Assembly: GCF_030384885.1 (NCBI RefSeq)
Contig: NZ_CP128613.1
From: Escherichia coli
GTDB taxonomy: Bacteria > Pseudomonadota > Gammaproteobacteria > Enterobacterales > Enterobacteriaceae
Length of the DNA: 64,000 bases
Reading direction: 5' to 3' (one strand)
The notes under the pieces are model-generated. The model saw only the letters and a list, made by a program, of their open reading frames with translations, was not told the origin of the DNA and did not search any database. Numbering within the stretch: position 1 is the first letter of the stretch; every line of letters starts with the position of its first letter. Below, piece after piece: positions 841-13,017 of this stretch. The position numbers and the translations under genes were made by a program.

Positions 841-1005
841 TGCGATCTCTCTTAAATAAAAATAAACGTCGCAGATAATAAAGCCCTGATTAAACCAGGC
901 ACTATCAGAAATCGCTCATAACTAATATATGCAGCATTGTGTACTGGAGGGAATTAATTTAACAATTTGAATTTACGTTATAGATTTTACTGCTACTTTG
1001 ATAGT

Positions 1006-1047
1006 ATTTCGCCCTTCTTAACTAAAAAGTTAAGTGGAGGGCGAAAT
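1006..1047. terminator. Inverted repeat (10-bp stem ATTTCGCCCT / AGGGCGAAAT, inner palindrome in the loop) just downstream of yahK
   Basis: Read directly from the sequence between the yahK stop and the yahL start; no strong T-tract follows, so terminator function is uncertain. Confidence 0.3.
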
Positions 1048-1082
1048 TAATATGTTAAATCATAGAGCATTTATTAATTTTT

Positions 1083-2132
1083 TCAGTCTGTTAGTGTGCG
1101 ATTATCGATAACAAAACGATATTTCACATCACCACGTAGCATTCGCTCATAGGCTTCATTAATTTGATCGGCCCGAATCATCTCTATATCAGCCACGATG
1201 CCATGTTCGGCGCAAAAATCGAGCATCTCCTGTGTTTCTGGAATGCCGCCAATCATAGAGCCGGCTATCGCGCGGCGTTTCATGATCAGGTTGAAAACTT
1301 CCGGCGATTTATGCGGTGTCGCAGGCGCACCAACCAGCGTCATGGTGCCATCGCGCTTCAGCAAGGTGGTAAAATCGTCGAGATTATGTGGCGCAGCTAC
1401 GGTATTCAAAATGAAATCGAAACTCTTCAGATGAGTCGCCATCTCATCGGCATTGCGTGAGTTAACAACTTCATCGGCCCCCAGGGCTTTTGCCGCTTCG
1501 CGTTTTGACTCAGACGTGGTAAACGCCACTACATGCGCCCCCATCGCGTGGGCCAGCTTTATCCCCATATGCCCCAGACCGCCAATGCCGACCACTCCCA
1601 CTTTTTTACCCGGCCCGGCCTGCCAGTGACGTAGCGGCGAGTATGTGGTGATCCCTGCACACAACAAAGGCGCCACCGCCGCCAGCTGCTCTTGCGGGTG
1701 ACGAATACGCAGAACATATCGCTCATGAACGACGATCTGTTGTGAGTAGCCGCCCAGCGTATGGCCCGGTTCATCCGGCGTCGGCGAGTTATAGGTGCCG
1801 GTCATGTGATCACAGTAGTTTTCCAGCCCATCTTCACACTCTTCGCAATGTTTACAGCTGTCGACAATGCAGCCGACACCGACCAAATCGCCCGGTGCAT
1901 GTTTTTTTACCTGATCACCAACGGCTACCACGCGCCCCACAATTTCATGACCCGGCACGCAGGGGTAAACCGTCCCCGCCCACTCGGAACGCACCTGGTG
2001 GATATCGGAATGGCAGACGCCACAGTAAGCGATTTCGATTTTGACATCATGCGGTCCCGGTTCACGCCGGGTAATATCCATCGGTTCCAGCGGTTGTTTA
2101 GCGGAATATGCACCAACAGCTTTGATCTTCAT
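1083..2132 (-). CDS. yahK: Zn-dependent NADPH alcohol/aldehyde dehydrogenase (MDR family)
   Basis: 349 aa; catalytic zinc motif GHEIVG, structural-zinc cysteine cluster (CKHCEECEDGLENYC), Rossmann motif GIGGLGHMG. Confidence 0.9.
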   Translation of the reverse strand: MKIKAVGAYSAKQPLEPMDITRREPGPHDVKIEIAYCGVCHSDIHQVRSEWAGTVYPCVPGHEIVGRVVAVGDQVKKHAPGDLVGVGCIVDSCKHCEECEDGLENYCDHMTGTYNSPTPDEPGHTLGGYSQQIVVHERYVLRIRHPQEQLAAVAPLLCAGITTYSPLRHWQAGPGKKVGVVGIGGLGHMGIKLAHAMGAHVVAFTTSESKREAAKALGADEVVNSRNADEMATHLKSFDFILNTVAAPHNLDDFTTLLKRDGTMTLVGAPATPHKSPEVFNLIMKRRAIAGSMIGGIPETQEMLDFCAEHGIVADIEMIRADQINEAYERMLRGDVKYRFVIDNRTLTD

Positions 2133-2218
2133 TGTGTTTACTCCTGATTAGCTATGTGTATTTGGCGATGCCTGATATGTCATCGCGGCAAAACGCGTCC
2201 ATTGAATATAGCCAATAT

Positions 2219-3205
2219 TTAAACCACCCGATCCAGCCCCAACATGCCGCGAGCCTGAATGAAACAGAGCAGCAACGTTCCCCATAAGGCCATCGTCAGG
2301 TAGGGGCTTATCCCGAGAATATTGAAGCCGCTTTCAATAATTTGCAGAAGAAACAGCGCCAGCACCATACCAATTATCCGCCCGCTGCCGCCGTCCGGAT
2401 TAACCCCGCCGAGTACTGCCGCGAGGATTGACACCAGCAAGTACGATTCGCCATAAGAGGCCTTAGCCGAGTTGAGTTTCGACATCATCAAAAATGCTGC
2501 TACCGCACAAAGCAAGGCGGAAATGACATACACCCATATCAGCACCCGACGCGTGTTAATACCGGAGTAAAGTGTTGCTCGTTCGTTAGAACCAATCAGA
2601 TAAATGGATTTACCGAGCGGCGTTTTCTCCAGCAATATCCACAGCCCCAGCGCCACTGCGGTAAACAACCACATCGGTAGCGGAATACCGAACCACTGTG
2701 CATGATTCAACCACAGCACCCATGAGGGATAATTGGCAATGGCGCTACCGCCTGTCACCAGAATATTTACCCCCTTGAGCAACGTCATCATCCCAAGCGT
2801 TGCAAGAATTGGCGACACTCGAATACCAGCAATCAATACGCCGTTACATAAACCGATTATCACCGCCGCGCCAGCGCCCGCCAGCAGCGTAGCGACAACC
2901 GTAGCAATACCCGGTGGATACTGAGTCGCCACCCACGCCATCACCAGTGAACAGGCGTTAGCAGTGGCAATAATTGACAAGTTAATGCCACCGCAAAGCA
3001 TGGTCACCGCCATAGCCAACGCCAGAATGCCCAGCACGGGCATTTGCGAAGCGACGGACTGGAAATTACTTATCGACCAGAAAATCTCCGGCATAGTAAT
3101 GCTGAAGGCGGCAACAGTTAGCACCAGCAGGCCGATCAAGTAAAACTCAATGTTATTACGCCACGATTTTTTCATAGCAGACTCCGGTTCTGATGCTGAC
3201 TCCAC
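2219..3205 (-). CDS. ABC transporter permease (monosaccharide/CUT2-type)
   Basis: 328-aa highly hydrophobic multi-TM protein; start overlaps the stop of the upstream permease (translational coupling). Confidence 0.85.
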   Translation of the reverse strand: MESASEPESAMKKSWRNNIEFYLIGLLVLTVAAFSITMPEIFWSISNFQSVASQMPVLGILALAMAVTMLCGGINLSIIATANACSLVMAWVATQYPPGIATVVATLLAGAGAAVIIGLCNGVLIAGIRVSPILATLGMMTLLKGVNILVTGGSAIANYPSWVLWLNHAQWFGIPLPMWLFTAVALGLWILLEKTPLGKSIYLIGSNERATLYSGINTRRVLIWVYVISALLCAVAAFLMMSKLNSAKASYGESYLLVSILAAVLGGVNPDGGSGRIIGMVLALFLLQIIESGFNILGISPYLTMALWGTLLLCFIQARGMLGLDRVV

Positions 3206-4143
3206 GCCGTGGCGCTAATGCTGGCAACGATGATGATGCCTGTGATCAATGTTTGCCAGTAAGACGAGACTCCCAATAAATTTAGCCCGTTTTGCATCAC
3301 TGCCAACAACACCACGCCGAGCAAAGTACCGGTTAACGTGCCGCGCCCGCCGAGCAAACTAGTGCCGCCAAGCACCACCGCAGCCAGTACTGTCAGCTCA
3401 TAACCCAGAAGAGAATCGGGGGCGACAGTCATCACCGTCCACGACTGCACTACACCCGCAGCACCAGACATCAATCCCATATAGCCGTAAACGAAAAGTT
3501 GCAGTTTCAGCACGCTAAAGCCGATGCGACTGGCTGATTCACGGTTCCCGCCAAGGGCATAAATTTTGCGCCCTACACTGGTGAAATTCATGATAAACGC
3601 TGTCAGCAGCACAACCGTAATCATGGCGATCAGCGGCAGACCAAGGCCATAGTCATAGCCGTCAACATCGGTGTACTTGAACAACATTACCCCCTGCTCA
3701 AACCACGGCGGAAAGTCGTACAGCCACACACCTTTACTCAACCATAACAGCAGGCCATAGAAAATATTCAGCGTCGAAATGGTGATGATGATAGAAGGCA
3801 CCCGTAGGCGATTAACCAGTAAGGCGTTTATTAAGCCAAGTAAAATGCCGATGCCGCCCGCCAGGGCAAACGCGACAGCAAAGTTGCCACCCATTTTTTG
3901 TAGCAACAGCACCATGCCGTATTGCGCAATGATGGTCATTGCCGGAAACGAAATATCAATTCCACCGGAAATTAACACCACAAACAAACCACAGGCGAGA
4001 ATAGTCAACATGGCATAGTTATTGGCGAGATCGTACAAATTACCGAATGTCAGAAACTCGTCGCTGCGCCAGGCAAGGCCAACAAACAGCCCCACAATCA
4101 GTAATGCCAGCCAGAATTCATGACGTTTTTTCAGTTCAACCAT
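3172..4143 (-). CDS. ABC transporter permease (monosaccharide/CUT2-type)
   Basis: 323-aa multi-TM protein; start overlaps the ATPase stop by 8 bp. Confidence 0.85.
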   Translation of the reverse strand: MVELKKRHEFWLALLIVGLFVGLAWRSDEFLTFGNLYDLANNYAMLTILACGLFVVLISGGIDISFPAMTIIAQYGMVLLLQKMGGNFAVAFALAGGIGILLGLINALLVNRLRVPSIIITISTLNIFYGLLLWLSKGVWLYDFPPWFEQGVMLFKYTDVDGYDYGLGLPLIAMITVVLLTAFIMNFTSVGRKIYALGGNRESASRIGFSVLKLQLFVYGYMGLMSGAAGVVQSWTVMTVAPDSLLGYELTVLAAVVLGGTSLLGGRGTLTGTLLGVVLLAVMQNGLNLLGVSSYWQTLITGIIIVASISATAWSQHQNRSLL

Positions 4144-5635
4144 TTACCACCTCCGCAATCCTGGCCTGAGAACTGCTGTCAGGCAGGAAGCTATGGGTGA
4201 TCTGACCTTTTTGCATTACCAAAATCCGGTGGCTTTGATACCACGCTTCTTCAATTTCATCGCAGATCATCAATACCGCAATGCCATGAGCCGCCAGATC
4301 GCTGATAATGCCGTATATTCCTGCTTTGTTGGCGATATCAACACCGACAGTCGGGCTATCGAGAATCAACAGTCGTGGCCCAATCGCCAGCCATTTGGCG
4401 ATCGATACTCGCTGCGCGTTACCCCCGGAAAGCGTATTCACCGGGAGATGTGGGTCAGAGACTTTGATGGTCAATGCCTTAATTAGCCTGTCCACCAGGT
4501 CACGCACTTTAGCTTCACTCAGAAAGCCGAAGCGATCTTTTACCTTGTGAAAAACAGTGCTAATGATGTTGTCTTCAATAGATTGCGCCATCACCAAACC
4601 GCGCGACATGCGATCTTCCGAAACATAACCAATACCGTGGCGGATGGCGTCCTGGTTACTATGCAGTGTAACCGGCTGACCGTTGATGAGGATCTCACCA
4701 GCATCCGGTCGGGTCATACCAAACAGACTCAGACATAATTCCGTGCGCCCCGCACCAAGCAGGCCAACAATCGACACCACTTCGCCCGCTTCCACCCGCA
4801 AGTTAATATTTTGATATTCCCCATGACGACTTAAATTACGCACCTCCAGCACTGGGGTGCTGGATTTTCCCTGCCACAACTCTCGCACCTGATATTCAAA
4901 CTCCTGGCCGGTCATCAGGAAACCGAGTTGTTTTGTGGTCATCTCTGCAGCCGGAAAGGTCCCGACCAGCTCACCATCTTTCAACACTGAAATACGGTCG
5001 GAAACTTCCATCACCTCTTCCAGACGATGACTGACGAAGACCACGCAAATCCCGCGTTCCCGCAATTGATGCACCACCTGTAATAACCCTTGCACTTCCT
5101 GATGGGTCAGCGAAGCGGTTGGTTCATCCATCACGATCAACCGTGCGTCCTGCGCCAGTGCACGGCAAATTGCCACCAGCTGACAGCGGGCAATTGAAAG
5201 CTCAGAAACGAGCGTATCCAGTGGCAATGTGACGTTAATACTGGTCATTGCCGCCTGCGCCACCTCACGCAGACGACGTCGGTTAACAAACAGACCGTGG
5301 TGATAGTGATTCACGGCGATATTCTCCCAGACACTCAGGTTAGGAAATAAAGAGAGGTCCTGATAAATCACCTGAATCCCCTGCGCCACCGAAGCGGCGG
5401 GTGTCAGCTTTGACCAGTTTTTCCCACCAAGCGTAATTTCCGCCCCCTCATCCGGGCGATAAACACCGGACATAATTTTAATCAACGTCGATTTACCACA
5501 GCCGTTTTGCCCGGCAAGGCAGTGCACCTCACCCGACATAAAGTCGAGAGAAACATCGCGCAGCGCTCGCGTGGCATGAAACGTTTTGTTGATATGACGA
5601 AGGGAAAGGAAGGTTTCCATAGCATCCCCTGGCAA
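4136..5635 (-). CDS. ABC transporter ATP-binding protein with two tandem ABC domains
   Basis: 499 aa; Walker A GQNGCGKST, signature LSGGN, Walker B ILDSP and duplicated cassette architecture typical of sugar importers. Probable true start at the internal METFLSLRHINKTF (~5620). Confidence 0.9.
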   Translation of the reverse strand: MPGDAMETFLSLRHINKTFHATRALRDVSLDFMSGEVHCLAGQNGCGKSTLIKIMSGVYRPDEGAEITLGGKNWSKLTPAASVAQGIQVIYQDLSLFPNLSVWENIAVNHYHHGLFVNRRRLREVAQAAMTSINVTLPLDTLVSELSIARCQLVAICRALAQDARLIVMDEPTASLTHQEVQGLLQVVHQLRERGICVVFVSHRLEEVMEVSDRISVLKDGELVGTFPAAEMTTKQLGFLMTGQEFEYQVRELWQGKSSTPVLEVRNLSRHGEYQNINLRVEAGEVVSIVGLLGAGRTELCLSLFGMTRPDAGEILINGQPVTLHSNQDAIRHGIGYVSEDRMSRGLVMAQSIEDNIISTVFHKVKDRFGFLSEAKVRDLVDRLIKALTIKVSDPHLPVNTLSGGNAQRVSIAKWLAIGPRLLILDSPTVGVDIANKAGIYGIISDLAAHGIAVLMICDEIEEAWYQSHRILVMQKGQITHSFLPDSSSQARIAEVVNG

Positions 5636-5668
5636 TAAGAATCGGGGCTTTCGCCCCGAAGAAATGGA

Positions 5669-6655
5669 TTAATAAAGTGAGTCAATATTGTCTTTGTTGA
5701 CCAGTAATACCTTATGGAAACGGATAATTCGCTTATCCATATCTACGTCGGCCTTACCGAGATTCTCCATTTCTAATCCAGGTTTGATCTCTTCACCCTT
5801 CAGCAACGTGCTGGCGACGGCCGCGAGTGCGTAACCTGCAGAGGCCGGATCGTAAGTAATCCCTTCGGTGATATCACCACTTTTAATCAGTGATGCCGCC
5901 TGTGAAGGGATCATCATGCCATAGACTGCGACTTTATTTTTCGCCCGTTTCTCTTTCACCGCACGTCCCGCGCCAATCGGACCGTTTGAACCAAAGGAGA
6001 CAACCGCTTTCAAGTCAGGATAGGTTTTCATGAGGTCCAGTGTGGTACGACGTGAGTCATCCACACTCTCGGCAACCGGCATGCGGCGGGTAACTTCATG
6101 CATATCCGGGTAATGCTCTTTCTGGTATTTCACCAGCAAGTCAGCCCATAAGTTATGCTGCGGCACGGTCAAACTACCCACGTAAATCACATAGCCGCCC
6201 TTGCCACCCATGCGTTTCGCCATATGTTCAACATATTCAGCGGCAAATTTTTCGTTATCAATGATTTCGATATCCCAGTTAGCACTTGGCTGACCGGGGG
6301 ATTCGTTGGTCAGAACCACAATTCCGGCATCTCGCGCTTTTTTGAATACCGGTTCCAGCACGTTGGCATCGTTTGGCACAATTGTAATTGCATTAACCTT
6401 ACGGGCGATTAAATCCTCAATGATTTTAACCTGTTGCGGAGCATCAGTACTTGAAGGTCCCACCTGTGACGCATTAACACCAAAGGCTTTACCCGCCTCG
6501 ACCACACCTTCGCCCATGCGATTAAACCACGGCATACCATCGACTTTAGAGATATTCACCACGACTTTTTCCGCTGCCTGGAGCGGCGAGGAAATTAGCG
6601 CAGCGCCTAATAACAGCGAAGACACCATATTGATAACAAAACGTTTATTCATCAT
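5669..6655 (-). CDS. Periplasmic substrate-binding protein (LsrB/RbsB-like, type I)
   Basis: 328 aa with N-terminal signal peptide (…SSPLQAAEK); overall resemblance to AI-2/ribose-binding proteins including the C-terminal NKDNID motif. Substrate unknown. Confidence 0.8.
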   Translation of the reverse strand: MMNKRFVINMVSSLLLGAALISSPLQAAEKVVVNISKVDGMPWFNRMGEGVVEAGKAFGVNASQVGPSSTDAPQQVKIIEDLIARKVNAITIVPNDANVLEPVFKKARDAGIVVLTNESPGQPSANWDIEIIDNEKFAAEYVEHMAKRMGGKGGYVIYVGSLTVPQHNLWADLLVKYQKEHYPDMHEVTRRMPVAESVDDSRRTTLDLMKTYPDLKAVVSFGSNGPIGAGRAVKEKRAKNKVAVYGMMIPSQAASLIKSGDITEGITYDPASAGYALAAVASTLLKGEEIKPGLEMENLGKADVDMDKRIIRFHKVLLVNKDNIDSLY

Positions 6656-6905
6656 TTCAGCCTCATTGCAGGGTAGTCAGGAAGTGTTCGCCCAAATTAG
6701 CGCGCTGGAGAGAATAAGAATTTTCGAATATTTTTATGCAGAATAAACAGCCCTATTTCAGGCAGCTATTAAAAATTTGGTTATAAATATGGACAAAACG
6801 GGCAGTAACAATAAGTGTGACAATCATCACGTAAAAAATAGTAAAACAAACACAATTAACGATATTTTATGTTTGTGAGTTTATTTCATGCGGATAGAGA
6901 GTTAT

Positions 6906-7316
6906 CTACACAACTTCAATGAGGGCATATTCTTCAAAAATAACGTCCATTTCGGGTGAATAGCTTCCCTCTGCCTGGAAAAAACGACGGTGTTCATTGC
7001 GCCAATATTCAAGACTAAGATCACCTTCACCTTCCTTACGGGCAAGCTCCGCGGTGACATCAGAAAATCGCAGTAAATGCAGGCCAATCACTCTGATAAC
7101 ACATACAGGCTCACCACGGCTATTTTCTACAATCTTATACTCACCAATCATCGGAAATGCGTTGTCTTCAATACATCCTGCCAGCGAACCACAGGAAGCA
7201 GTTTTAACACCAGTTGCAATCAACGTTGCGAGGTAATCGGCCAACGCTGCTGAATCGCCAAAACTACAAAAGGAAGCATGGGGATATTTTTGTGAGATTT
7301 TTTCTTTTATGGTCAT
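6906..7316 (-). CDS. ASCH-domain-like small protein
   Basis: 136-aa ORF of ASCH/PUA-like size and composition; assignment from sequence resemblance only. Confidence 0.55.
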   Translation of the reverse strand: MTIKEKISQKYPHASFCSFGDSAALADYLATLIATGVKTASCGSLAGCIEDNAFPMIGEYKIVENSRGEPVCVIRVIGLHLLRFSDVTAELARKEGEGDLSLEYWRNEHRRFFQAEGSYSPEMDVIFEEYALIEVV

Positions 7317-7613
7317 GAGAATATTTTCGCGATTACGGAAAAAAAATCACATCTTAATTACTGTCGATAACTATCAGCAAGAGGATCATTGGTTTTTCTA
7401 TGTTTAATCTTTTTTATCCGAAGCAGGTCACATTTATGGCTTGATAAATACCTTTGTTAAAACTCACTTTTGTGTATTTCTCTCAAATAATCCCCTGGAA
7501 ATTATGCCGGGAGATTATAAAGTTCAGGATCATTCATTAACAAACCATTCCCGCCCCACTCCCTGGGGCTTAAATCTCTTACTATTCACCGTTGCAGGCG
7601 TTTCAAATTCGTA

Positions 7614-8996
7614 TCAACCTGCCACACTCCCCCACACCAGTTGCCCTTTATGGAACGTTGCGGTTCTCGGCGAGATACGCGCCACCGCCTCGGCGGAACA
7701 GGAGGCGTCCACCAGCACAAAGCTGGCGTCATCCTGCGCTTTAGGCCAGACGCGCTCGCCTTTTTCGTTGAGCGGCAATACATCACCAGTGGCTAAAAAC
7801 AGCGAGCGGGAAAGGTTCTGTTCGTTAGGGCGAATATAGAGCTGCGCGTACAGATTGGCTTTTTCCAGCATGTCGCCCAGGCCGTAAGGCGACCAGTGGT
7901 CAATAACGCTGTCAGTGCCAGTCATTACTTTTACGCCTTTGTCGTGCAGTTGTCTAAGCGGCATATGCAGCGTGCCAATCGGTACCGTCGAGGCAATAGA
8001 AATTTGCTGCGCCGCCATCCGGTTCGCCAGTTCATCTACCTGTTGCTCGTTGAGGGTAGCCAGCGCAAAGGCGTGGCTGATGGTCAGCTTGCCTTTTAGC
8101 TGCGGCGTTTTCTCCACTGTTTCAACCATATAATTGATGGCCGCCACGCCCGCCGGAGTGGTTTCGTGCAGGTGAAGATCGACGCCTTTGTCGTAGTCCA
8201 GCGCAATCTGGAACATGGTGTCGAGGGATTTTTCCATCGCGCCATCAACACTGGTCGGGTCCAGCCCGCCAACGTAATGCGCGCCTGCCTGCATTGCTTC
8301 ACGCATCAAGGGTTCCGATTTCGACAGCAGCAAACCGTGCTGCGGGAAGGCGACAATTTCACACTCGAAGCCCGCCTGACGTCGCGCCAGCACCGCCTGC
8401 AAATTTTGCAGATTTTTCAGGCCGGAAACCGGTTCGATATTGCAGTGGCTGCGGGCAATGGTGGTGCCTTTCGACTGCAATAAATCGATCAGTTTTTCTG
8501 CCCGCTCCTGCGTGTAGGGTTGCAGTTCCGGCAGCATTTTTTGCTCGAGTTTGATCATGTCCTGGATGGTGGTGCCTGCCGGGCGATTGAGCGAGCGCCA
8601 CGGTCCGCCGTAAAAGGTTTTGTCGAGATGAATATGCATGTCGCGAGTAGTGGGCAGCATCAGCTTACCGCCAGCGTCATATTGCGGCAGCGTGGCGTCC
8701 GGATGCTGCTTGTTCTCATGTAGCGCAACAATTTTACCGTCCTGAATCTCCACGGTCTGGCGCGCCGTGCGGGTCTGCACCGCCACACCGTTTTCGTAGT
8801 CAAAACCGGTTTCCAGCAGCACGTTATCAAGATAGTAATGCGGGTCAGTGATTTTCATGGTGTTATTCGCGTCGCAGTGGGTTGTGCCAGAGACCTCCGC
8901 ATGGGCGAATGGCACAGAGGTACCAAACAGCGCGGCGGCGGTGACCATCTTACCGCTCTGGCTCAGAAATTCACGGCGGCTATTGTTTTTTTTCAT
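7614..8996 (-). CDS. yahJ: Tat-exported amidohydrolase/deaminase (metal-dependent hydrolase superfamily)
   Basis: 460 aa; N-terminal twin-arginine motif SRREFL followed by a hydrophobic stretch ending AHA; HxH-type metal-binding motifs of amidohydrolases. Confidence 0.85.
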   Translation of the reverse strand: MKKNNSRREFLSQSGKMVTAAALFGTSVPFAHAEVSGTTHCDANNTMKITDPHYYLDNVLLETGFDYENGVAVQTRTARQTVEIQDGKIVALHENKQHPDATLPQYDAGGKLMLPTTRDMHIHLDKTFYGGPWRSLNRPAGTTIQDMIKLEQKMLPELQPYTQERAEKLIDLLQSKGTTIARSHCNIEPVSGLKNLQNLQAVLARRQAGFECEIVAFPQHGLLLSKSEPLMREAMQAGAHYVGGLDPTSVDGAMEKSLDTMFQIALDYDKGVDLHLHETTPAGVAAINYMVETVEKTPQLKGKLTISHAFALATLNEQQVDELANRMAAQQISIASTVPIGTLHMPLRQLHDKGVKVMTGTDSVIDHWSPYGLGDMLEKANLYAQLYIRPNEQNLSRSLFLATGDVLPLNEKGERVWPKAQDDASFVLVDASCSAEAVARISPRTATFHKGQLVWGSVAG

Positions 8997-9005
8997 CTTA
9001 CGTCC

Positions 9006-9956
9006 TTACGTTTTAATAATATGGGTGCCCGTTTCGCCACGCAGCGCCGCGGGCAGGCATTCCGGCGTGGTGATAATCACTTCTTTACCGCCCTGTTCCA
9101 GGAACGTCAGGCTGGCGATGATTTTTGGCAACATGCTGCCTGGCGGGAAATGCCCTTCCTGCATATAGCGGGTCATGGTGGCAATATCCACCCGATCCAG
9201 CGCCTGCTGCTGCGGTTTGCCAAAATGAATACAGACTTTTTCCACGCCAGTGGTGATCACCAGAATGTCGGCGTGAATTTCACGGGCCAATAGCGCGGTA
9301 GAGAGATCTTTGTCGATAACCGCGTCCACGCTTTGGTAATCCCCCGCTTCACTGCACACCACCGGAATTCCACCGCCGCCCGCGCCAATTACCACAAAGT
9401 CTTGTTGGATCAGCGCCTTAATGGCAGGTGCTTCGACAATACGTTTCGGTTCCGGCGAGGCGACCACGCGGCGATAGCCGCGTCCGGCATCTTCAACAAA
9501 ACGCCAGTCAGGGTTAGTCTTTTGTAATTCGTCACGCTGGCTGTCACTAAAGAATGCGCCGATGGGCTTGGTGGGATGGGCAAACCCCGGATCGTTTTTA
9601 TCCACTTCCACCTGAGTCACCACAGTGACGGCTTTTTTCTCGCCGTGGCGCGCCAGCCGATTGTTCAGCGCCTGTTGGATCAAGTAGCCAATGCCGCCTT
9701 GCGTATCTGCCACACAGTTCGCCAGCGGCGTTAAGGGCAGCCCTTCGCGCTCGTGGGCAATCTCCGCACGGCGTAGATCCAGCCCAACCTGCGGCCCGTT
9801 GCCGTGGGTCAGCACAATGTCGTAATCGGAAGCCAGCATTTCCAGCACCGTATCGGCGACGGCCTTCACCGCCTCCGCCTGATGCTCAATCGACTGGCTG
9901 GCGTTATCTTTGATAATGCTGTTGCCACCAATGGCAACGACCACAAGCTCTTTCAT
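9006..9956 (-). CDS. yahI: Carbamate kinase-like protein
   Basis: The track ORF (9006..10073) carries an N-terminal extension overlapping yahG; the start at MKELVVVAIGGNS gives 316 aa, with a typical carbamate/amino-acid kinase N-terminus. Confidence 0.85.
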   Translation of the reverse strand: MKELVVVAIGGNSIIKDNASQSIEHQAEAVKAVADTVLEMLASDYDIVLTHGNGPQVGLDLRRAEIAHEREGLPLTPLANCVADTQGGIGYLIQQALNNRLARHGEKKAVTVVTQVEVDKNDPGFAHPTKPIGAFFSDSQRDELQKTNPDWRFVEDAGRGYRRVVASPEPKRIVEAPAIKALIQQDFVVIGAGGGGIPVVCSEAGDYQSVDAVIDKDLSTALLAREIHADILVITTGVEKVCIHFGKPQQQALDRVDIATMTRYMQEGHFPPGSMLPKIIASLTFLEQGGKEVIITTPECLPAALRGETGTHIIKT

Positions 9957-10051
9957 ATTGTTATGTCCGCTACAGAGGGTGATGAGGTTATGAAAGTGAG
10001 GTTGCCCCTCTCCCCAGAAGGGAGAAGGGATCGTAAAGTGCACTTTGCAGG

Positions 10052-11470
10052 TCAGACGCCGTAACGTTCGCACCAGCCAAGAATGGCTTTTTCGAAGCAG
10101 GCGAATGGTGGATGCACAATGCCCGCGCCAATCATGCCGACGCCCGCATCTTTATGGGCAATGGCGGTGTTGATCACTGGCAGAATGCCACTGCTACCCA
10201 CGCGGGTGATGTCGATTGCCGACGGCACGCCCATAAATCCGAGCAGCGGAATGGTGACGTTCGGGTTTTCGCCGAGGGTGATTTCACGCATCTGGCGGGA
10301 GAAATCGATAGCCTCTTCCACCGTACCGCCCACCAGCGCGACGATAGCGGGTGCGGTCGCCATAGCAAATCCACCAATGCCGTAGGTTTCGGTGATGGCG
10401 CTGTCGCCAATATCCAACCCAGAATCTTCCGGCTTATAACCTGCAAACATCGGGCCGATCACCTGCTGCGCCGGACCGGTAAACCATTGCCCCGGCAGGC
10501 CGCTGACCCGCAGGCCGAACTCGACGCCGTTACGCGCCATCGTGGTCACCACGGTGCTGTATTCGATGCCGTGCGCCGCATCCATCGCCGCTTTACACAT
10601 CGCCATCCACGTCGGGCCGGAGAAGTAGTCGCTGCTGGCGACAAACTCAAACACTTCGCGCTGTTGCTCGACGGAATAACCCGCCTGAATAATCCCCGGC
10701 GTCAGCGCCTGAATCAGCAGCGTCGTCCCGGCGTTATTGCGGTTATGGCATTCATCGCCCATATGCAGCGCCTGCGCCAGCATCAAGCGCAGATCGATCT
10801 CGCCGATAATTTTCATCGCGTCACGCAGCATTGGCCCCTGCACATCGCGCATCCAGTTGAGGCGGTCAATCACGCTCTGATCGTTGGCACCCATACGCAA
10901 AATCTTCGCCATCTGCTCGCTCATATTGGTGTAAGCGATGTTGCCGTAGGTTTTGTTTTTCACGATGTGCATAAACATCGAGGCAGAGGTAACACCCGCC
11001 ATCGAACCCACGCAGTCATGCTCGTGGCACGGCGAGAAAGTGATCTCCCCGGAAGCCGCCAGTTCGGCCGCCTCGTCGAGATCTTTCGCCAGCCCTTCGA
11101 ACACCAGGGCCCCGGTGACCGCGCCTTTCATCGCGCCGCACATTTTTTCCCAGGTCACTGGCGGCCCGGCGTGAAGAATGGTTTTCGCCGTCATGCCTGG
11201 CACCACGTTAATCGCCTGATCAAAGCCAATCAGTACCGGATGCGACTGGATAATGCGTTCCAGCGCCTGCTGGTTAGCGGCGGCGATTTTGTCTGCCAGC
11301 GGTGAATCGGCAATGTTGTCCAGCGCCTGCACCACCTGCATATTGCCCTGCCCCGGCGGCGTCCAGTCGAGTTGGGTCACTTCTACATACTGCTTTTTCA
11401 GGTCATCGCTAAACATGGCGATGCCGACGTTAATAACGTTCAACGGTTGGCTAAACAGTGACTGGCTCAT
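10052..11470 (-). CDS. yahG: DUF1116-family protein, paralogue type of AllG/YlbE
   Basis: 472 aa; start overlaps the yahF stop by 1 nt (coupled translation). Confidence 0.85.
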   Translation of the reverse strand: MSQSLFSQPLNVINVGIAMFSDDLKKQYVEVTQLDWTPPGQGNMQVVQALDNIADSPLADKIAAANQQALERIIQSHPVLIGFDQAINVVPGMTAKTILHAGPPVTWEKMCGAMKGAVTGALVFEGLAKDLDEAAELAASGEITFSPCHEHDCVGSMAGVTSASMFMHIVKNKTYGNIAYTNMSEQMAKILRMGANDQSVIDRLNWMRDVQGPMLRDAMKIIGEIDLRLMLAQALHMGDECHNRNNAGTTLLIQALTPGIIQAGYSVEQQREVFEFVASSDYFSGPTWMAMCKAAMDAAHGIEYSTVVTTMARNGVEFGLRVSGLPGQWFTGPAQQVIGPMFAGYKPEDSGLDIGDSAITETYGIGGFAMATAPAIVALVGGTVEEAIDFSRQMREITLGENPNVTIPLLGFMGVPSAIDITRVGSSGILPVINTAIAHKDAGVGMIGAGIVHPPFACFEKAILGWCERYGV

Positions 11471-13017
11471 CAGGCTTCCTCCCCTTTGCAGATAAATTCA
11501 CGCGCCAGCAATCCGGTATTGGTGCTACTGCTCGCCAGAATCACTCCGGCATCAAGCAGCATCTGGCTTTGTTGTTCTAATGATGGCGTATCGAGATCGG
11601 TGCCCAGTACATAGGCGAGAATGATCAACTCGCGTCCTTCGGCAGCGGCGATCGCTTTCGCTTCTTTGATCGCCTTGATGGTGGAACCGACCGGATCTTC
11701 ATGCGATCCAAATCCGAGCACAAAATCCATCACGATCACCGCCACTTCTGGATCACGCGCTTCTTCGATCAAGCGACTGATGCGGTTGGTGGGGTCAATC
11801 ATTGGATGCGGCTTGCCGTTGGTGAAGTCGTCATCGCCAAAGTCGAGGAAGGTGTGTTTGATGCTGCGGTTGATATCTTGCAGGCGGAATTCAGGATCGG
11901 GCTGGATGTTGCTGTAGACATCGCCGTGTTTTTCCATCACCGCGAACATGGTTTCGTCGCACAGTGTGCCGCCGCAGAACAGGCCACGAATGTATTTCTG
12001 CCGCGGTTGCAGACGCGCACGCACATCCGCAATCAACGGCTGGTTCAGGGTATGCAGGTCGAGATGTTCTTGTTTCACGCCACAGAGCATCACCGCTTTC
12101 AACGCCGCCTCTTTGGTGCCGCGGGCAAACTGTAGCCCGTGCTCGTCCACCGGTGTTTCGCCACGGCCGAGGAAGCAGACCACCACCGGCTTGCGGCAGG
12201 CGCGTGCGCGTTCCAGCACTTTGCGGGCCACCGCAGGCGCGGGCGGTTTGGAGATAAGTACAATGATTTCAGTTTGCGGATCGTTTTCCAGCATCCCGAT
12301 AGCGTCGAGCATCATCAGGCCGCCGATTTTCTCGCTCAGGTCGCGCCCGCCGGTACCGATCAGTTGCGAAACGCCGCCGCCAAATTCATGAATGCGGACG
12401 CTCAGCTCCTGGCTGCCGGTGCCGGATGCGCCAACAATACCGATGTTGCCGCGACGCACGGCGTTACCAAAGCAGAGCGCCGCGCCGTTGATAATCGCCG
12501 TGCCGCAGTCTGGCCCCATCATCAGCAGCCCTTTTTCGTGGGCCAACTGTTTGAGCGCCAGTTCATCTTCAACCGAGACGTTATCGGAAAACAGCATCAC
12601 GTTAAGATCGTTTTGCAGCGCCTGACGTGCTTCGCGAGCGGCAAACAGACCGTTGACCGAAATCACGGCCAGGTTACTTTCCGGGATATGCTTTTTGGCG
12701 CTGGCAATCGTGGCGTAACGCGCCTCGTGCGAGCCACTTTGCGCTTTGCTGTTGAACAGTTCTTCAATCTCCACCAGCAACTGCTCGTTGTCTGCGCCCG
12801 CTTTGCCGTTGATGACAATCATCAGGTCGCCGTTTTTCGCCTGTTCCAGCTCCGGCGTCAGCAGCCCTAAATTCTTCAGAACGCCTTTGTTCATTTCGGT
12901 CGCCATCGCCACAAATGCCTGCTCGACACCGTCGAGTTTATTTGCACGTGTGGAGATAGACATCAGCGAGACAGAATCAAAATAGGTATTCGGTTTAATG
13001 ACTATTTTAACTGACAT
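11470..13017 (-). CDS. yahF: FdrA-like protein (succinyl-CoA-synthetase-alpha-like CoA-binding fold), paralogue type of AllF
   Basis: 515 aa; glycine-rich nucleotide/CoA-binding motifs; overlaps the yahE stop. Confidence 0.85.
   Translation of the reverse strand: MSVKIVIKPNTYFDSVSLMSISTRANKLDGVEQAFVAMATEMNKGVLKNLGLLTPELEQAKNGDLMIVINGKAGADNEQLLVEIEELFNSKAQSGSHEARYATIASAKKHIPESNLAVISVNGLFAAREARQALQNDLNVMLFSDNVSVEDELALKQLAHEKGLLMMGPDCGTAIINGAALCFGNAVRRGNIGIVGASGTGSQELSVRIHEFGGGVSQLIGTGGRDLSEKIGGLMMLDAIGMLENDPQTEIIVLISKPPAPAVARKVLERARACRKPVVVCFLGRGETPVDEHGLQFARGTKEAALKAVMLCGVKQEHLDLHTLNQPLIADVRARLQPRQKYIRGLFCGGTLCDETMFAVMEKHGDVYSNIQPDPEFRLQDINRSIKHTFLDFGDDDFTNGKPHPMIDPTNRISRLIEEARDPEVAVIVMDFVLGFGSHEDPVGSTIKAIKEAKAIAAAEGRELIILAYVLGTDLDTPSLEQQSQMLLDAGVILASSSTNTGLLAREFICKGEEA

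Follow-up and report, generated by a model that had tools for sequence, protein, structure and literature searches.

The ABC importer encoded between yahJ and yahK in Escherichia coli is the known AauABCD system, probably ancestral at its site and lost from K-12 by two deletions

The DNA analyzed here, hereafter the window, is a 64,000-nucleotide (nt) stretch of an Escherichia coli genome (contig NZ_CP128613.1 of RefSeq assembly GCF_030384885.1), and we were concerned with the genes lying between yahJ and yahK at positions 2219 to 7316. Four of them encode an ATP-binding cassette (ABC) importer, which we identify, at a probability of roughly 0.9 for the reading as a whole, as AauABCD, a known importer of D-ribulose and L-arabinose whose genes are ancestral at this site, have been lost in K-12 by two deletions, and have no demonstrated link to the adjoining yah genes.

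All coordinates are window positions, and all genes of the interval are on the minus strand, according to the list of open reading frames (ORFs) and the RefSeq annotation of strain 2013C-4282, which is 100% identical to window positions 1000-9000 and in which RefSeq annotates the same genes. In the order of transcription, aauA (5669-6655) encodes a periplasmic binding protein of 328 amino acids (aa), whose signal peptide ends in LQA and is followed by AEK. It is followed by aauB (4136-5620; the ORF runs to 5635, and the start is that of the RefSeq coding sequence), encoding a fused double-domain ABC ATPase of 494 aa, and by aauC (3172-4143), encoding the first permease of 323 aa and supported by the ORF, the RefSeq coding sequence, NCBIfam matches, and comparison with O157:H7. 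The last gene, aauD (2219-3175; Z0419-type), encodes the second permease, with 318 aa from the RefSeq ATG and a longest ORF that extends to 3205. The aauB and aauC genes overlap by 8 nt, and the stop of aauC overlaps the start of aauD by 4 nt. The original prediction of five co-directional genes with overlapping stops and starts between yahJ and yahK, the fifth being an ASCH-domain gene, thus agrees with both the ORFs and the RefSeq annotation in coordinates and gene calls.

The binding protein provides evidence for the identity of the transporter. The AauA of the window is 99% identical over all 328 aa (E 2.7e-213) to PDB entry 9I1M, the AauA-D-ribulose structure of the "accessory L-arabinose uptake" system AauABCD encoded by O-island 17 of enterohemorrhagic E. 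coli (EHEC) (Cottam et al., Nat Commun 2025, PMC12307932). With Klebsiella 3D02, the identity is 93% over the mature protein. When the list of D-ribulose contact residues was taken from the 9I1M paper, all six (K37, W43, E118, H167, E196, and S223) were found in the window protein at the published positions. The window protein and 9I1M are set apart by three substitutions, all outside the pocket: D201V, E297Q, and S23A, the last in the signal peptide. AauB, AauC, and AauD are 98-99% identical to their O157:H7 counterparts over the full length (98% for the aauD product), and the gene order and the context beside yahK are colinear with O157:H7 at 97-99% DNA identity. Because of the 99% identity of AauA, the six of six contact residues, and the 98-99% identity of the other proteins, the transporter is, as judged by sequence, the already characterized Aau system and not a new one. 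Its specificity, which had been held to be unreadable from the sequence, can be read in this case through near-identity to a liganded crystal structure.

Protein family models gave a broader picture of the same kind. AauB yielded one continuous match (residues 5-492) to the NCBIfam models of AraG, YtfR, XylG, RbsA, and LsrA, all below the equivalog cutoffs. The permeases matched models of the RbsC, AraH, and LsrC/D types, and the aauD product (RbsC/LsrD/AraH-type) was likewise below the equivalog cutoffs. The binding protein matched the RhaS, LsrB, and RbsB models, and its PDB relatives are CUT2 binding proteins. The NCBIfam, Pfam, and PDB matches therefore bear out the predicted gene content of an ABC sugar importer, here of the ribose type (CUT2), and an ASCH gene.

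The Aau system of EHEC has been described in two papers. Its genes are Z0415 (binding protein), Z0416-7 (ATPase), and Z0418/Z0419 (permeases), the ATPase carrying two locus tags in EDL933 (Cottam et al., Nat Commun 2024, PMC11127945). A promoter fragment of about 300 bp responded to L-arabinose as the sole inducer, and the response was abolished without araC; the system conferred a competitive fitness advantage in the mouse gut and was found in 397 of 445 B1/E strains while being largely missing from phylogroups A and B2 (PMC11127945). In the later work, D-ribulose gave AauA a 16 degree thermal shift and bound it with a dissociation constant of 1.98 uM, as against 598 uM for L-arabinose (PMC12307932). 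The crystal ligand, alpha-D-ribulose modelled as a ring, lies between W43 and H167 and receives hydrogen bonds from K37, E118, E196, and S223; uptake of D-ribulose requires that L-arabinose has induced Aau, and AraB phosphorylates the imported sugar, the use of which is AraB dependent (PMC12307932).

If these properties hold for the window strain, its locus would work as follows. Transcription would start from the AT-rich segment at 6656-6905 and need AraC together with L-arabinose. Periplasmic AauA would capture alpha-D-ribulose at micromolar affinity or, some 300 times less tightly, L-arabinose, and the loaded protein would dock on the AauC/AauD permease pair, import being powered by the fused double ATPase AauB. 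Imported D-ribulose would then be phosphorylated by the araBAD ribulokinase AraB and enter the pentose phosphate pathway.

Upstream of aauA, the segment at 6656-6905 has a GC content of 35-37%, and its designation as a promoter region holds up well, since it contains CRP- and AraC-like sites and the published reporter fragment of about 300 bp covers them. All of these elements read on the minus strand. A CRP-like site, CGTGATGATTGTCACA, is located at 6831..6816, immediately upstream of the first AraC half-site, as in the araBAD promoter (PBAD). Reading of the sequence then gave an I1-like half-site, TGCCCGTTTTGTCCATA, at 6804..6788 and an I2-like half-site, TAACCAAATTTTTAATA, at 6783..6767, 21 nt apart from start to start. 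A candidate -10 hexamer, TATTCT, would lie at 6745..6740, 21 nt past the I2-like site, and a GAGG ribosome-binding site was read at 6664..6661.

For comparison, the genuine araBAD promoter was read from an E. coli genome; its I1 (TAGCATTTTTATCCATA) and I2 (TAGCGGATCCTACCTGA) are also 21 nt apart. The distance from the TCACA of the CRP site to TCCATA is 27 nt in aau versus 29 nt in PBAD, and the -10 element follows the end of I2 at 21 nt in aau versus 20 nt in PBAD. The local alignment of the two promoters is weak (score 27), and their likeness is one of site arrangement and spacing, not of overall sequence. We then aligned ten aau upstream regions covering six genera, from E. coli, the divergent Escherichia locus L032, Klebsiella, two Franconibacter species, Mangrovibacter, two Symbiopectobacterium, and Aeromonas. 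TCCATAT plus the C of TAGC/TAAC is invariant in all ten, and GTGA-N6-TCAC and other I1/I2 bases are kept in at least nine, while the rest of the region cannot be aligned; outside E. coli, the A-box of I2 is the canonical TAGC. We infer that the aau promoter is built like PBAD, with a CRP site, I1-I2 half-sites 21 nt apart, and a -10 element. The candidate sites are consistent with the published AraC dependence (PMC11127945) and lie within the reporter fragment of that paper. Neither paper describes such sites, and the likely location of the cis-elements for CRP and AraC at the level of bases is a small addition of the present analysis.

The history of the locus was approached through the genomes that lack it. 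Its absence from K-12, as originally predicted, was confirmed in a presence/absence comparison run on 5426 complete E. coli genomes, in which the full 8-kb stretch is present in 2205 and a short K-12-type junction in 2805; yahJ and yahK are adjacent in K-12 derivatives and BL21. The genes had been described as inserted between yahJ and yahK, a view contradicted by the K-12 site itself, which is "empty" in name only and holds remnants of aauD, of the ASCH gene, and of the aau CRP site. In one K-12 derivative, the RefSeq annotation has a pseudogene of 75 nt, marked "incomplete," in the yahK-yahJ interval. Within the K-12 locus (L002), positions 4100-4291 correspond to window positions 2099-2290 at 99% identity and include the last 72 nt of aauD (2219-2290). 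After a 9-nt filler that has no window counterpart (4292-4300), positions 4301-4426 correspond to window positions 6812-6955 and contain the CRP half-site TAAGTGTGA, the spacer between the ASCH gene and aauA, and the last ~50 nt of the ASCH gene; this segment is 84% identical to the window strain over a 70-nt BLAST segment and 94% identical to O157-type alleles. A second filler of about 24 nt, again with no window counterpart, precedes position 4449, from which K-12 matches the window from 7553 onward (98%), downstream of yahJ.

Two deletions in K-12-type genomes were thus delimited. Deletion D1 (2291-6811; 4.5 kb) covers the core promoter and AraC sites together with aauA, aauB, and aauC in their entirety and the greater part of aauD, and deletion D2 (about 6956-7552; 0.6 kb) covers the 5' 360 nt of the ASCH gene and its upstream region. 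Because the aauD and ASCH remnants in K-12 are in-frame and half of the aau CRP site is retained, K-12 is best read as a derivative of two deletions; these alignments indicate loss in K-12, not gain in the window strain. Intermediate forms were also found. Escherichia sp. E2593 carries yahJ, an intact ASCH gene (89% identical), the D1 scar, and yahK but no D2, and its left D1 breakpoint matches that of K-12 to within 2 nt (2290-2292). This arrangement, in which the ASCH gene is left whole beside the D1 scar and D2 is absent, recurs in one complete genome, that of E. coli HH45. In the L032 locus (labelled E. coli SCPM-O-B-8794, ~10% divergent), the order is pdeL, a 100-nt 3' remnant of the ASCH gene, aauABCD, yahK, and yahL; over 7 kb this locus aligns colinearly with the window (89.6% identity) and is about as divergent as its other flanking genes.

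By these alignments, aau is shown as the ancestral occupant of this site, not only in E. coli but also in at least one divergent lineage of Escherichia. We also lean toward an old deletion polymorphism as the explanation of presence and absence: from an ancestral yahJ-ASCH-aauABCD-yahK arrangement inherited by E. coli and by some, at least, of the cryptic Escherichia clades, D1 would have arisen once, its scar being common to phylogroups A and B2 and to E2593 by descent or introgression, and D2 would have followed later.

Several points weigh against our reading. The published papers call the aau locus horizontally acquired (PMC11127945), and an old acquisition, predating the divergence of E. 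coli from the cryptic clades, may have taken place. A scan with one representative genome for each species gave 80 loci, none of them from another named Escherichia species, which is indirect evidence, and the common D1 breakpoint could have come from recombination between lineages instead of common descent. Ligand, regulation, and phenotype are transferred by analogy from EHEC strains with 98-99% identical proteins. In the promoter, direct AraC binding at the candidate I1-I2 bases would follow from their sequence, and the A-box of I1 is degenerate in the E. coli aau (TGCC instead of TAGC).

The alternative that survives best holds that O-island 17 was recently acquired and inserted into a K-12-like yahJ-yahK junction of EHEC-type lineages. 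It accords with the description of the island as horizontally acquired, enriched in B1 and E, and correlated with the enterocyte effacement locus (LEE) (PMC11127945), and also with the nearest non-Escherichia homologues, in Klebsiella, Franconibacter, and Mangrovibacter, being 90-92% identical. Relative to O157, moreover, DNA identity is 97-99% in aau but 92-97% in the yah genes on either side, and this higher conservation could reflect recent recombinational spread. However, a recent insertion would not account for remnants of both ends of the segment at the "empty" K-12 site, for the intermediate form with an intact ASCH gene and the D1 scar, or for a ~10% divergent lineage that has aau at the same site with genome-typical divergence. 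The interval also lacks the marks of such an event: there is no integrase, insertion sequence (IS) element, or tRNA among the ORFs and features listed for it in the window, no flanking direct repeats were found apart from short chance repeats, and its GC content (about 0.46-0.55, ~50%) is the same as that of the flanking yah genes. We consider a recent insertion unlikely and prefer the loss of an ancestral locus by deletion.

The position of the transporter had also led to the proposal that it may take up the substrate used by the yah pathway. Such functional coupling to an unknown substrate of yahF/yahG/yahI/yahJ is suggested by the aau genes adjoining yahJ on the same strand, and some read-through is conceivable, as there is no terminator-like site between yahJ, the ASCH gene, and aauA. 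The proposal fails on the binding protein, which is orthologous to that of a transporter with a known, unrelated substrate: its ligands are pentoses, not carbamoyl or nucleobase-type compounds (PMC12307932), and its promoter depends on AraC and L-arabinose (PMC11127945). Conservation of gene context points the same way. Among the 80 aau-type loci returned by the species scan, 78 are in other genera, and none of these 78 has homologues of yahF, yahG, yahI, or yahJ within 9 kb; the sole yahK-type match (in L061) is a generic zinc alcohol dehydrogenase of 25% identity. The aau operons of Klebsiella and Franconibacter consist of the four genes alone among unrelated neighbors, and a link to D-ribulokinase or ribitol genes was considered there and rejected, the flanking genes being unrelated. 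Within Escherichia, L032 keeps aau and has lost yahB-J, whereas the reverse holds for K-12 and E2593, in which the yah cluster is retained and aau is gone, a pattern from which we conclude that the two sets were lost independently. Coupling of the transporter to the yah pathway is therefore highly improbable, and Aau has no demonstrated link to the yah cluster (FdrA-like / DUF1116 / carbamate kinase / amidohydrolase).

The last alternative, a second autoinducer 2 (AI-2) uptake system of the LsrB type, is hardly credible: in its favor are the RefSeq product name of AauA, "autoinducer 2 ABC transporter substrate-binding protein," and LsrB structures among the more distant PDB relatives (E 1e-21 to 1e-24), but AauA scores 110.8 bits against the LsrB equivalog NF011937, far below the cutoff of 384 and below its score with the rhamnose-binding model (NCBIfam), and the crystal ligand is D-ribulose. 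There is no lsrK, lsrR, lsrF, or lsrG near the locus, where the neighbors are yahK, the ASCH gene, and yahJ. Pereira and colleagues are said to have reported in 2009 that LsrB contacts AI-2 through K35, D116, D166, Q167, P220, and A222. In an alignment to 5GTA, with which the numbering agrees, these residues correspond to K37, E118, Q166, H167, F221, and S223 of AauA, so that one of six is kept. The pocket positions of AauA are thus homologous to those of LsrB but re-tooled. The earlier remark that the binding protein resembles AI-2/furanose binders stands for the fold and the ligand class, as the published alpha-D-ribulose was modelled as a ring, but, by score and contact residues, the protein is not an LsrB. 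The RefSeq name is a misannotation that should not be propagated.

Further comparison placed the locus among related systems. It is the same locus as the EHEC AauABCD, with gene order, the yahJ-yahK position, the promoter interval, the 98-99% identity of the proteins, and the six contacts all matching; it differs in that the ATPase of the window is one intact ORF, and the papers do not describe the ASCH neighbor or the K-12 scars. The Rbl system of Citrobacter rodentium (RblABCD-RblK-RblI) shares the importer architecture and the preferred sugar at ~60% identity according to the paper (PMC12307932), and an ~60% identity class of homologues was also seen in our scan of species representatives. 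In contrast to the window locus, which would rely on AraC and AraB, Rbl brings a D-ribulokinase and an isomerase of its own and responds to D-ribulose as inducer (PMC12307932); no ORF for an FGGY D-ribulokinase or a KpsF-like isomerase lies between yahJ and yahK. Like PBAD, aau carries a CRP site, here putative, followed by two candidate AraC half-sites 21 nt apart that overlap the -35 region, and the published induction is by L-arabinose. AraF, AraG, and AraH, which form the araFGH transporter of the AraC regulon (araE being another), are different proteins from those of Aau, whose scores do not reach the NCBIfam equivalog cutoffs. LsrACDB and Aau are alike in belonging to the CUT2 ABC family, in the fold class of the binding protein, and in binding five-membered-ring sugars, but they differ in ligand and regulator. 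The protein of Klebsiella pneumoniae structure 3D02, named "putative LacI-type regulator," belongs to an operon with the same four-gene order and the conserved AraC/CRP-like promoter block but in a different context, with a trpS-like gene, a KefF-like gene, a LysR regulator, and hsdR; a search for PDB 3D02 in the available literature library found no published ligand.

Within the operon, a terminator-like match and folding revealed a hairpin between aauA and aauB (5659..5642, minus strand), with a 7-bp GC stem and a GAAA loop. The 69-nt fold around it is not significant relative to shuffled sequences (z = -1.23). A GC-rich hairpin of unrelated sequence occupies the same gap in all genera examined, namely, Klebsiella, Franconibacter, Mangrovibacter, Symbiopectobacterium, Aeromonas, Atlantibacter, and Yersinia, and it is this recurrence, not the fold statistics, that makes the case for it. 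A hairpin after the binding-protein gene is a familiar arrangement that favors the binding-protein message. The one found here probably acts as an intra-operon stabilizer or attenuator that raises the output of the binding protein relative to that of the membrane components.

The ASCH-domain gene (6906-7316, minus strand; YhfF/COG4405 type, 136 aa) lies between yahJ and aau. Its product matches PF04266 over residues 22-133 (E 3.6e-22, Pfam), with 1T62 and 3S9X as PDB relatives (E 1e-16 to 1e-18). A sigma-70-like promoter candidate, TTGTTA-18-TATAAT, is present about 200 nt upstream of the gene, inside D2 (7543..7514, minus strand); it was picked by consensus match only and agrees at 10 of 12 consensus positions. 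Homologues of 50-66% identity are widespread in Enterobacterales, those in Yersinia and Kosakonia being in unrelated contexts, and no ASCH gene adjoins the aau homologues in any genus outside Escherichia among the species-representative loci. We considered assigning the gene to the transporter or to the yah pathway and rejected both, as its contexts elsewhere are unrelated, it is never beside aau outside Escherichia, and its presence tracks neither neighbor consistently. It appears to be an independent, stand-alone neighbor outside the published aau gene set.

The flanking genes were examined as well. yahK (1083-2132, minus strand) encodes an NADPH-dependent aldehyde reductase, as supported by the ORF, RefSeq, and NCBIfam, and yahJ (7614-8996, minus strand) encodes an amidohydrolase of the cytosine-deaminase-like subfamily (NF005312, 713.7 bits). 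The N terminus of YahJ (8898-8996, minus strand), MKKNNSRREFLSQSGKMVTAAALFGTSVPFAHA, carries a Tat-type SRREFL signal, which implies a periplasmic cytosine-deaminase-like amidohydrolase; the remaining yah cluster looks cytoplasmic. The window strain is without yahH, about 420 nt that lie between yahI and yahG in O157:H7 and K-12 being missing (window 9957-10051 versus L003 9575-10088 and L002 6853-7273). In comparison with O157:H7, DNA identity is 97-99% in aau (2219-6655) and 89-97% in yahL, yahK, and yahJ-F (1-2132 and 7614-13000). The whole yah region of the window strain is unusually divergent, the best other genome reaching 97.3% over 8 kb. In the region formed by yahL (25-840) and positions 841-1082, yahL is AT-rich (GC content, 33-40%) and fast-evolving, with YahL protein identities of 86-87% to K-12/O157 and 76% to L032, compared with 97-98% for YahK. 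The yahM gene of 2013C-4282 (L001 1413-1653), downstream of the window start, is a frameshifted pseudogene according to RefSeq and is intact in K-12.

Three further observations concern the locus and its distribution. An imperfect inverted repeat of 25 nt (76% complementary) is formed by positions 2266-2290 and 7643-7667; its left arm ends exactly at the left D1 breakpoint, at 2290, and its right arm is in the 3' end of yahJ, and it may be due to chance. A 4.7-kb contig labelled "MAG: Bacteroidales bacterium" (SFEK01000152.1, L004) carries aauABCD at 98-100% protein identity and is almost certainly mis-binned E. coli. The Escherichia-like assembly GCA_046507365.1 (L086) has the full arrangement of yahD-J, ASCH, aau, and yahK with nearly every gene fragmented, which suggests a low-quality long-read assembly or massive pseudogenization.

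Taken together, the locus belongs to a system established in 2024-2025 as providing EHEC and many other E. coli with an advantage in gut competition through the scavenging of D-ribulose in the presence of L-arabinose. The CRP and I1-I2 elements conserved from Escherichia to Aeromonas suggest that the aau-type operons of Klebsiella, Franconibacter, and others belong to the AraC regulon. Where K-12-type strains are concerned, the common description of O-island 17 as acquired probably has the polarity backward, which bears on the interpretation of the correlation with LEE. If the old deletion polymorphism is true, the correlation of aau with LEE would reflect retention under selection in gut-competitive lineages, not co-acquisition.

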